Made by a program: the position numbers and the translations under genes. Below the pieces are notes generated by a model that did not search any database, was not told the DNA's origin, and was given only the letters and a program-made list of their open reading frames with translations. A stretch of DNA of 56,700 nucleotides from Escherichia coli (lineage in GTDB: Bacteria; Pseudomonadota; Gammaproteobacteria; Enterobacterales; Enterobacteriaceae): NCBI RefSeq assembly GCF_003334255.1, contig NZ_QOWU01000034.1. The stretch is one strand, 5' to 3'. Positions 42,236 through 48,703 of this stretch are shown piece by piece. Each line of letters opens with the position of its first letter. The stretch's first letter is position 1.

Positions 42236-43093
42236 CTAGTACATATTCAGTATGTAAGTGAACCGGCAGGTGGCATCTATTGGCTGTTGCGCCGTTGTGT
42301 CCACGCGTAGCTTCATATCATGCAGTTGCCTGGACGTGATCGGTTGCGGCTCTGGCGTCACTGTCACTTTGGCATCGTCACAGCCCGAAGTGGAGAAGGT
42401 CATCTGCTGTGCGACAAAACGGCAGTAAGCACCACGCTCGTCATATTTACTACCATCACACAGTTTTCCACCTTCCATCAGATAAGTGGGCAGCGTTTGT
42501 TCAATCACAGCACCTGTTGATTGCATCCTGACTATTTTGTTATGCACGACCGTATTTTCATTCCAGGAGACATCATAAGGATCTAAAGGTATTGCGCTAC
42601 AGTCAGAACTGACTTTTGTCGGGCCAATATAGGGAACATTATTACCTGTATATATTGCCTCCGTTGCGTCCTCACTCTTTACATACGAGGAAACTATCCA
42701 CGGACAACCATGCATATCACCGTCATAGAAAACTGTGACTTTCATTTCCACGCAGGCCCAGGTCGTTTGTGGGGTGCGAGCATCATATTCTTCAAGGCCA
42801 GGGCAACGTGAAGTTGGTAATATGGTTCTTGCGTCTTCTAAATGCAGTTCCGGAGCAGTACCTTGACCAGTCCATGATACTAGTGGCACATTCAAAATCG
42901 CAACTGACCTGGATTGATATACCCCATATTGCGCGCCTTCTGGTGTGAGGATAGAAAGATTAAACTGAAAACCTGTGAGCACTCCCATTGATCCCGCAGG
43001 AATGTATAACGTCGCGATCTTTTTCGCGGCCTGCACTCCTGTGCTGAGGCAAATGAGCAGCAAAAAGTAAAAGACATAACGTAGAATTTTCAT
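42236..43093 (-). CDS. yfcO: Secreted DUF2544-family protein YfcO, terminal gene of the yfc fimbrial operon (possible tip adhesin)
   Basis: 285-aa ORF with N-terminal signal peptide (MKILRYVFYFLLLICLSTGVQA); starts 2 nt after the yfcP stop. Confidence 0.8.
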   Translation of the reverse strand: MKILRYVFYFLLLICLSTGVQAAKKIATLYIPAGSMGVLTGFQFNLSILTPEGAQYGVYQSRSVAILNVPLVSWTGQGTAPELHLEDARTILPTSRCPGLEEYDARTPQTTWACVEMKVTVFYDGDMHGCPWIVSSYVKSEDATEAIYTGNNVPYIGPTKVSSDCSAIPLDPYDVSWNENTVVHNKIVRMQSTGAVIEQTLPTYLMEGGKLCDGSKYDERGAYCRFVAQQMTFSTSGCDDAKVTVTPEPQPITSRQLHDMKLRVDTTAQQPIDATCRFTYILNMY

Positions 43094-43094
43094 T

Positions 43095-43634
43095 TTAAAT
43101 ATACTCGAAGGTAGCGGTCAGGCTGGCAGTGAATTCACCGATCGTCACATCGCGACCGCTTTTCGCCTGGATCCAGGCCCGGAAATTAATATCATTGTTG
43201 CCGTTGGTAAGCGCAAAAGTCGCCCCGGTAGTGTTGTTAATATCCACCCGCTTGCCGTCGAGCGTTTCCATCCCTATCCCCACGCCCTGCGCGGTGGAGG
43301 TGTCATCGACTGCCAGAAAACCCGGCTGACCGCTGTCTTCGGTGCCGCTCAGCGTGACTTTGACGTTGTAGCCCGCTGGCCCTTTGCAGTCTTTCAGCTT
43401 AAACACAACCGGCAGATGCACAGACTGTCCGGCGACTATCAAATCCCGGTTGCTGACGGTGGGAAAATGGATTTCTGCCAGATTGGCACCATCCACCACC
43501 AGCGTGCAGGATTTACTCAGCAGGTTGCCGTAAAAATGCAGGTTGTTATCGACTGCCCGTGCCCCCGTGCTGGCGGTCAGCAGCAGGCCTGCTAACAGCG
43601 CATAACCGGGTGAATAAATGTGTGCTGTTTTCAT
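43095..43634 (-). CDS. yfcP: Fimbrial subunit-like protein YfcP
   Basis: 179-aa ORF, signal peptide, pilin-like size and Cys pair; overlaps yfcQ by 4 nt. Confidence 0.85.
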   Translation of the reverse strand: MKTAHIYSPGYALLAGLLLTASTGARAVDNNLHFYGNLLSKSCTLVVDGANLAEIHFPTVSNRDLIVAGQSVHLPVVFKLKDCKGPAGYNVKVTLSGTEDSGQPGFLAVDDTSTAQGVGIGMETLDGKRVDINNTTGATFALTNGNNDINFRAWIQAKSGRDVTIGEFTASLTATFEYI

Positions 43635-48058: not shown

Positions 48059-48139
48059 ACACGTTTTTATCCGTTTTTATTCTTGTTCGGTCAAAATCCA
48101 TTTAAATACCCCATAGCAGTGTCGCTATGGGGGTATGCC

Positions 48140-48703
48140 TTACAGGTAAGTAATCTGGAAGGTGGTATTTGCTTCGAAATTACCCAGATCTGGCGCATCA
48201 GCTGCGCCGACCAGCCAGGCTTTAAAGTTCAGAGTCTGCTTCGCTTTGCCTTTATTAGTGGCAGTATCTTTCACGATTTTCTGGTCAATACCCATGCCGC
48301 TTTTGTAAGAGGTACCCAGAGAGTCACCGATCGCCAGGCTAACATTGTTAAATGCCGCACCGGTATCGGTATTGAAAATGGTGTAATAATTGCCGCTATT
48401 TTCAGAAGAAACGGTACCAGTAAAGGTAGTGGTCATTGTTTCCTGAGTATCAAATACGCAATCTTGCAGGCGAATCTGGAAATTTTTCGGCGTGGTGGTG
48501 CCGTTATTTTTCAGTTTTTCGGCACCGATATCACCCATATCAACTTCCAGTTTGTGATCGTCCGGAACGATAGAACACACTGAGTCTTCAATGGTGCCGT
48601 AAAAACGTGCAGTACCGTTGTTACCCGCAGCGATTGTTGCCGTAGAGGTGAACGCGCCCATCACCATTGCCGCAGCAATAGCTGTTTTAACAAACTTACT
48701 CAT
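48140..48703 (-). CDS. yfcV: Major fimbrial subunit YfcV
   Basis: 187-aa ORF with signal peptide, pilin Cys pair and C-terminal beta-strand ending in Tyr; first gene of the operon. Confidence 0.88.
   Translation of the reverse strand: MSKFVKTAIAAAMVMGAFTSTATIAAGNNGTARFYGTIEDSVCSIVPDDHKLEVDMGDIGAEKLKNNGTTTPKNFQIRLQDCVFDTQETMTTTFTGTVSSENSGNYYTIFNTDTGAAFNNVSLAIGDSLGTSYKSGMGIDQKIVKDTATNKGKAKQTLNFKAWLVGAADAPDLGNFEANTTFQITYL

Follow-up and report, generated by a model that had tools for sequence, protein, structure and literature searches.

An ordinary Yfc chaperone–usher operon with an intact usher and a K-12-divergent chaperone–tip cassette in Escherichia coli

The Yfc fimbrial operon of Escherichia coli is a pi-type chaperone–usher system (Archer et al. 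2011, PMC3032704), a class assigned by usher phylogeny together with locus position (Wurpel et al. 2013). It has been described as "core-associated", occupying one common locus in nearly every E. coli, and as "functional but cryptic" (Wurpel et al. 2013, PMC3559732). Its Salmonella orthologue is stf (De Masi et al. 2017, PMC5343171); Stf fimbriae assemble and bind cells upon induction, the putative lectin domain at the N terminus of StfH is variable, and swaps of StfH alleles alter cell binding (PMC5343171). In the account of De Masi et al., citing Korea et al. 2010, forced expression of yfc in K-12 gave no detectable fimbriae and a 10-fold increase in T24 binding. At the sixA–yfcN site, E. 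coli W and O157:H7 have another pi cluster, also of seven genes (PMC3032704), and the yfc genes have high nucleotide diversity, with trees incongruent with multilocus sequence typing (Ren et al. 2016, PMC4850163). Here we analyse the copy of this operon on a 56,700-nucleotide (nt) stretch of E. coli contig NZ_QOWU01000034.1 (assembly GCF_003334255.1), hereafter the window, which attracted notice for its uninterrupted 881-amino-acid (aa) usher.

The region is very probably the E. coli Yfc operon, a Pap-like (pi) chaperone–usher system orthologous to stfACDEFGH, at its usual core site. An open reading frame (ORF) listing of window positions 40000–51000 returned seven co-directional minus-strand genes spanning 48703..42236, in exact agreement with the original prediction: yfcV (48140..48703, 187 aa), yfcU (45413..48058, 881 aa), yfcS (44641..45393, 250 aa), yfcR (44116..44625, 169 aa), yfcQ (43631..44119, 162 aa), yfcP (43095..43634, 179 aa) and yfcO (42236..43093, 285 aa). 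They are flanked by smrB (plus strand, 41613–42164) and sixA (49384–49869). The overlaps of 1–4 nt ascribed to these genes were found at yfcR/yfcQ and yfcQ/yfcP, the sole overlapping junctions (4 nt each), but not at the other four, which are gaps of 81, 19, 15 and 1 nt. K-12 MG1655 yfcOPQRS-yfcU(pseudo)-yfcV (b2332–b2339, b4661) shares locus, gene order and gene lengths with the window. A 6.8-kb query covering the locus matched, at 100% identity, the complete genome of E. coli G1/2, a strain from healthy human faeces in Germany, whose RefSeq annotation lists the same seven yfc genes. The position between sixA and smrB is also held in the six other strains that we compared, and more than 4900 of 5426 complete E. 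coli genomes carry the locus. Each of the seven proteins matches a curated fimbrial family, which argues against a chance pattern, and these matches bear out the roles first proposed for them. The window copy is thus an ordinary, already catalogued operon in which, to judge from the genes, all parts for assembly are intact.

The usher carries every expected feature of its class. No internal stop interrupts its 881 codons, and its Pfam domains are complete (PapC_N, residues 34–179; Usher, 198–759, covering model positions 3–549 of 549; PapC_C, 770–826). Residues 34–844 align to full-length PapC (7lhg_C, E=4e-216), and the protein scores 723 bits against PapC versus 265 bits against FimD and 1885 bits against the NCBIfam usher subfamily model PRK15284 (cut-off 972). 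By these bit scores and by identity, it groups with PapC-like ushers and YfcU, as expected of the pi clade. A tail of about 37 residues rich in Pro, Thr and Gln (approximately residues 845–881; window 45413–45523) extends past the PapC alignment and is the part of YfcU that diverges most between the window and K-12. Outer-membrane assembly of YfcU has been reported to depend on the translocation and assembly module (TAM; PMC11014939).

YfcS, a PapD-like periplasmic chaperone whose best NCBIfam model is StfD, aligns to PapD over its full length (E=3e-58). It is conserved at the positions that correspond to the invariant PapD cleft residues Arg8 and Lys112, with 'DRTR' and 'IKLF' identical, and at the C-terminal Cys pair; it is 82.8% identical to its K-12 counterpart. 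The major pilin YfcV, which is StfA-like, has full-length matches to the StfA, SteA and FimA models and matches FimA/FimF structures. The three minor pilins are the StfE-like YfcR (NCBIfam StfE, E=1e-43; C-terminal ...VVDYQ motif; 69.5% aa identity to K-12), for which a sequence search of the PDB returned no match, the StfF-like YfcQ (StfF, E=3e-42; the PapF-containing chain 7lhi_F, E=0.003; 76.5%) and the StfG-like YfcP (StfG, E=4e-43; PapK 7lhg_K, E=9e-10; 77.7%). Each of the four pilins carries a signal peptide, matches fimbrial subunit models over its full length and retains the penultimate Tyr that is invariant in 19 pilin sequences. Usher domains, PapD-like chaperone residues, and pilins with a signal peptide and a penultimate Tyr are the sequence features expected of a classical chaperone–usher operon.

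Set against its described relatives, the window operon resembles Salmonella stfACDEFGH: for its six non-adhesin proteins, the best NCBIfam matches are, in an order shared by the two clusters, StfA, the Stf usher subfamily, StfD, StfE, StfF and StfG. Scores fall under the Salmonella equivalog cut-offs for all but the usher subfamily model, which marks the proteins as homologous to, but not the same as, their Stf counterparts, and the likeness of YfcO to StfH is one of annotation and family. With the P pilus (papA-H-C-D-J-K-E-F-G) the operon shares the common layout of major pilin, usher, chaperone, several tip subunits and terminal adhesin; YfcU and YfcS resemble PapC and PapD far more than they do FimD and FimC, YfcP resembles the adaptor PapK, and YfcQ weakly resembles PapF. 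It differs from the P pilus in having no PapI/PapB-like gene upstream, no identified PapH-like terminator or PapJ, a DUF2544 adhesin that is not PapG-like, and the usher tail described above. The pi cluster of E. coli W and O157:H7 (ECs3216–3222, 'epo/eso'; PMC3032704) occupies the same site with the same seven-gene architecture, and an O145:H28 representative shows this layout; compared with the window, YfcV and YfcU of this cluster are 89% identical, YfcS 81%, the minor pilins 56–67% and YfcO 43%.

The usher was first singled out as a contrast to K-12, in which it was described as a frameshifted pseudogene. K-12 MG1655 yfcU (b4661) is indeed annotated as a pseudogene, but it has equal length (2646 nt), and its translation contains a single in-frame stop, a TAG as codon 579, which in the window is TAC (Tyr; 46322..46324). 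The K-12 reading frame is therefore broken by a nonsense codon in the barrel domain and not by a frameshift; from its position, this stop would cost the protein the end of the barrel along with the C-terminal domains. Aligned to K-12 yfcU and to other ushers, the window gene shows no frameshift, premature stop or domain loss, and its product is 98.5% identical to K-12 YfcU. The first 2168 nt of yfcU, all of yfcV and the promoter region are identical to K-12 save for two single-nucleotide polymorphisms (SNPs): the amber site is one of just two K-12 differences within window 45956–53057, the other lying at 48402 in yfcV, which is otherwise identical (99.8% DNA identity).

The intact usher does not set this strain apart. 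Among 5426 complete E. coli genomes, the exact 61-mer centred on the K-12 amber codon occurs in 363 and the exact Tyr-codon 61-mer of the window in 1366, and the ushers of six other representative yfc alleles are all intact, at 879–882 aa. The K-12-type distal cassette occurs at 99% identity or above in 1066 genomes, a far larger number than have the amber codon. Because the amber 61-mer is rare, the Tyr 61-mer common and the other alleles uninterrupted, the intact usher is the species norm and the K-12 lineage the exception. As originally posed, the question therefore matters little, as Yfc is a catalogued, core-associated cryptic fimbria in which intact ushers are the rule. The inducible-expression experiment suggested at the outset has, on the account in De Masi et al. 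citing Korea et al. 2010 (PMC5343171), in essence already been carried out with the K-12 and Salmonella operons.

The amber codon bears on that earlier work. We infer that the lack of detectable Yfc fibres in K-12 fits the stop in its usher, which offers a simple explanation for fibre-less forced expression; the defect at Tyr579 suggests using a one-base repair or a natural intact allele in functional studies. An amber-truncated usher sits uneasily with two statements in the literature: the 10-fold rise in T24 binding without visible fimbriae upon forced yfc expression, as relayed in PMC5343171 from Korea et al. 2010, and the description of yfc as intact in all genomes examined (Wurpel et al. 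2013, PMC3559732). T24 binding despite the amber codon would need read-through, another usher or an indirect effect.

The window departs from K-12 most strongly in the distal half of the operon. Outside one tract it is about 0.03% diverged from K-12. Within this tract (approximately 41800..45950, about 4.1 kb, delimited by sliding-window identity, SNP lists and per-gene identities), which spans the smrB 3' end, yfcO, yfcP, yfcQ, yfcR, yfcS and the last ~480 nt of yfcU, identity to K-12 drops to 50–97% per 200 nt inside otherwise identical DNA. The usher 3' end differs accordingly, and YfcS, YfcR, YfcQ, YfcP and YfcO share 83, 70, 77, 78 and 40% aa identity with K-12; the smrB 3' end within the tract has synonymous changes only. 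Both borders show a gradual fall in identity, the pattern that homologous recombination would leave, and we read the tract, from its pattern of divergence, as a replacement by homologous recombination of a chaperone/tip/adhesin cassette. The whole 6.8-kb mosaic locus is at least 99% identical in 68 complete genomes. The K-12-type cassette is commoner than the window type (at least 99% identity in 1066 genomes versus 315), a difference in frequency that does not settle whether K-12 or the window strain is the recombinant. We also noted 34 mismatches to MG1655 in window 78–39507, of which 25 cluster at 36711–37983; this 1.27-kb segment (yfcA 3' end, epmC and yfcL) looks like a second small recombination tract.

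Across strains, the Yfc proteins are much more variable than those of the flanking genes. Per-gene comparison of seven strains gave aa identities of 97.5–100% for SixA and SmrB, as against 66–99% for YfcV, 77–99% for YfcU, 73–99% for YfcS, 48–98% for YfcR, 45–99% for YfcQ, 54–97% for YfcP and 38–63% for YfcO. All seven yfc genes were intact in the six other allele classes. Ratios of non-synonymous to synonymous substitution (dN/dS) between yfc alleles were 0.05–0.26, and synonymous divergence (dS) in the distal genes reached about 1–2, versus 0–0.1 for sixA. These substitution patterns indicate old yfc alleles under purifying selection, and hence genes that serve in nature. Strain SCU-113 shares the YfcS–YfcP cassette of the window at 97–99% and YfcO at 63%, with similarity in yfcO confined to the 3' 345 nt; a further breakpoint therefore lies inside yfcO. 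In a separate case, EC27 joins K-12-like yfcV and yfcU (97–98% aa identity) to a yfcR–yfcO cassette that is 83–96% identical to that of 'capsule spontaneous mutant 1', a strain whose yfcV is just 66% identical. Megablast similarity to the window ends at the yfcS/yfcR junction in many genomes. The EC27 mosaic and these cut-offs point to recurrent breakpoints at module boundaries.

The yfcV allele of the window is of the K-12 type and shares 66–71% aa identity with the two divergent alleles sampled. The yfcV allele used as a marker of uropathogenic E. coli (UPEC) differs from this K-12 "cryptic" allele (PMC7512150); the marker, as used by Spurbeck and in VirulenceFinder, is defined by at least 85% identity to alleles with PCR primer sites, which the 'cryptic' allele lacks, and the latter is excluded from the database (PMC7512150). 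Typing a strain as 'yfcV-positive' is silent on which adhesin it carries, and Yfc specificity should not be assumed to be common across strains.

The predicted adhesin YfcO is the most variable product of the operon. The original prediction was right to call it a terminal secreted protein; we add a place in the StfH/YfcO family, and with it a predicted role as a two-domain tip adhesin, on the strength of its match to Pfam PF11245 (DUF2544; E=2e-62, residues 47–283) and of the name "StfH/YfcO family fimbrial adhesin" given by the NCBI annotation pipeline (PGAP). It is 40% identical to K-12 YfcO, at 285 aa versus 273 aa, and represents a rare allele, at least 99% identical in 316 of the 5426 genomes. 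A large protein collection contained 164 homologues, nearly all from Escherichia and 42–70% identical, of which more than 160 are named StfH/YfcO. In an alignment of 112 homologues, residues ~25–165 were hypervariable (entropy ~2.0–2.8 bits) and residues ~165–285 conserved (0.4–1.2 bits), the conserved half containing invariant Cys and Trp residues and a C-terminal T-C-R-F-x-Y-x-L-N motif. An AlphaFold model (predicted local distance difference test score, pLDDT, 88) has two beta-sandwich domains. The two-domain tip-adhesin model thus draws on gene position, conservation pattern, model domain layout and the Salmonella StfH experiments; the C-terminal domain is putatively a pilin fold, and binding of a host receptor by YfcO is suggested indirectly by the StfH allele swaps (PMC5343171). 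The N-terminal half of YfcO above all, within the tip-adhesin cassette, is among the most polymorphic parts of an otherwise conserved region.

If Yfc follows the established chaperone–usher pathway, all seven proteins would be exported by Sec. YfcS would cap each subunit by donor-strand complementation, and YfcU would form the outer-membrane pore. The tip adhesin YfcO would be the first subunit to enter it; the minor pilins YfcP, YfcQ and YfcR would come next and the YfcV polymer last. Transcription would start in the AT-rich region upstream of yfcV and would probably be silenced by H-NS in laboratory conditions. The distal cassette, comprising the C-terminal tail of the usher, the chaperone, the three minor pilins and the adhesin, has probably been exchanged by homologous recombination, which presumably gives a receptor specificity different from that of K-12.

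The region upstream of yfcV, which we take to be regulatory (48704..49383, 680 nt), has 31.9% GC versus 51.5% for the window and matches K-12 at 100% identity. Within it lie the sixA terminator hairpin (49338–49374), promoter-like hexamers at 49115..49087 and 48945..48916, and GATC sites at 48803 and 48947, 144 nt apart. Pap-type regulation combines papI/papB-like genes with a Dam/Lrp GATC switch; here the two GATC sites stand without such regulators, as we found no credible papI/papB-like or regulator-sized ORF in the 680-nt region. A search upstream of yfcV for a fimS-like invertible element turned up nothing beyond the sixA terminator hairpin and short repeats at chance level, and an Rfam scan of 41500–50000 gave no match.

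Several explanations compete with an ordinary, usable Yfc operon carrying an exchanged tip cassette. The operon could be a functionally dead relic, never expressed or assembled in nature, whose intact usher has no consequence. Such a relic would agree with the crypticity of Yfc under laboratory conditions (PMC3559732), with the tolerance of a nonsense mutation in the usher by the K-12 lineage and with the IS91 or IS1 insertions found inside the yfc cluster of some genomes, which indicate occasional inactivation outside the K-12 lineage too. We nevertheless consider it quite unlikely, because the low dN/dS persists across very old alleles and speaks of long-term purifying selection, the seven genes are intact in every other allele class of a locus that most genomes keep, yfcV transcripts are higher in Shiga toxin-producing E. 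coli associated with haemolytic uraemic syndrome (PMC6033998), and the orthologous Stf fimbriae function once induced. The mosaic itself might be an assembly chimera rather than a real recombinant, as the window resembles a short-read contig with both ends stopping in IS1; we give this practically no credence, since window 38100–52900 is 100% identical to the complete G1/2 genome, 68 complete genomes carry the same arrangement and identity declines gradually, not abruptly, at the tract borders.

A different doubt concerns YfcO, which may not be the tip adhesin at all; it could instead serve as an accessory protein, periplasmic or secreted, or terminate or anchor the fibre, with receptor binding residing in another subunit. 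Profile comparison (hhalign) of the YfcO family with the Yfc pilins found no relationship, a sequence search of the PDB returned no match, structural matches were weak and generically immunoglobulin-like, so that no solved structure resembles the protein closely, and Pfam still lists its domain as one of unknown function. An NCBIfam scan placed YfcO in no family at E<=0.001, and its PGAP name must therefore come from another rule. Weighed against gene position, conservation pattern, domain layout and the behaviour of StfH, we regard a role other than tip adhesin as unlikely. The reading that we prefer, a Yfc operon able to assemble a fibre with a K-12-divergent tip, has points to its disadvantage as well: it assumes that an usher of the K-12 type up to approximately residue 720 is compatible with an 83% identical chaperone and 40–78% identical tip subunits; a promoter and terminator scan gave counts equal to those of shuffled sequence, with promoter-like sites at chance frequency; and H-NS silencing is probable from base composition and literature.

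We tentatively suggest, while holding it doubtful, that the yfc locus acts as a modular adhesin-switching site, in which swapping the tract left promoter, major pilin and usher barrel untouched. If true, receptor specificity, or else escape from immunity or phages, would have been under balancing or diversifying selection over the long term in a core fimbria termed 'cryptic', and K-12 and G1/2-like strains would make a natural near-isogenic test system. The cassette replacement and the N-terminal diversity of YfcO are the sole aspects of the locus that might merit follow-up, and they are consistent with fimbrial adhesins generally.

Three observations concern the surroundings of the operon. 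The convergent smrB/yfcO spacer (71 nt) contains a GC-rich hairpin, GGCAGGGT-CAAATG-ACCCTGCC, at 42198..42219, which we read directly from the sequence; it is a likely terminator, judged by its form, and the terminator scan did not pick it up. The smrB 3' end (41800–42164) carries, in the part adjoining yfcO, 11 synonymous differences from K-12; SmrB is 99.5–100% identical among sampled strains, and its dS of 0.10–0.43, versus 0–0.10 for sixA, suggests hitch-hiking or a recombination border beside a hypervariable cassette. At the ends of the window, positions 1–77 are the last 77 nt of one IS1 and positions 56630–56700 the first 71 nt of another in the same orientation; MG1655 and G1/2 have no IS1 at the corresponding sites (the lrhA–alaA intergenic region and the inside of yfdF), it is probable that IS1 copies broke a short-read assembly at these points and that the window comes from a strain very near G1/2 yet distinct from it by a few SNPs.

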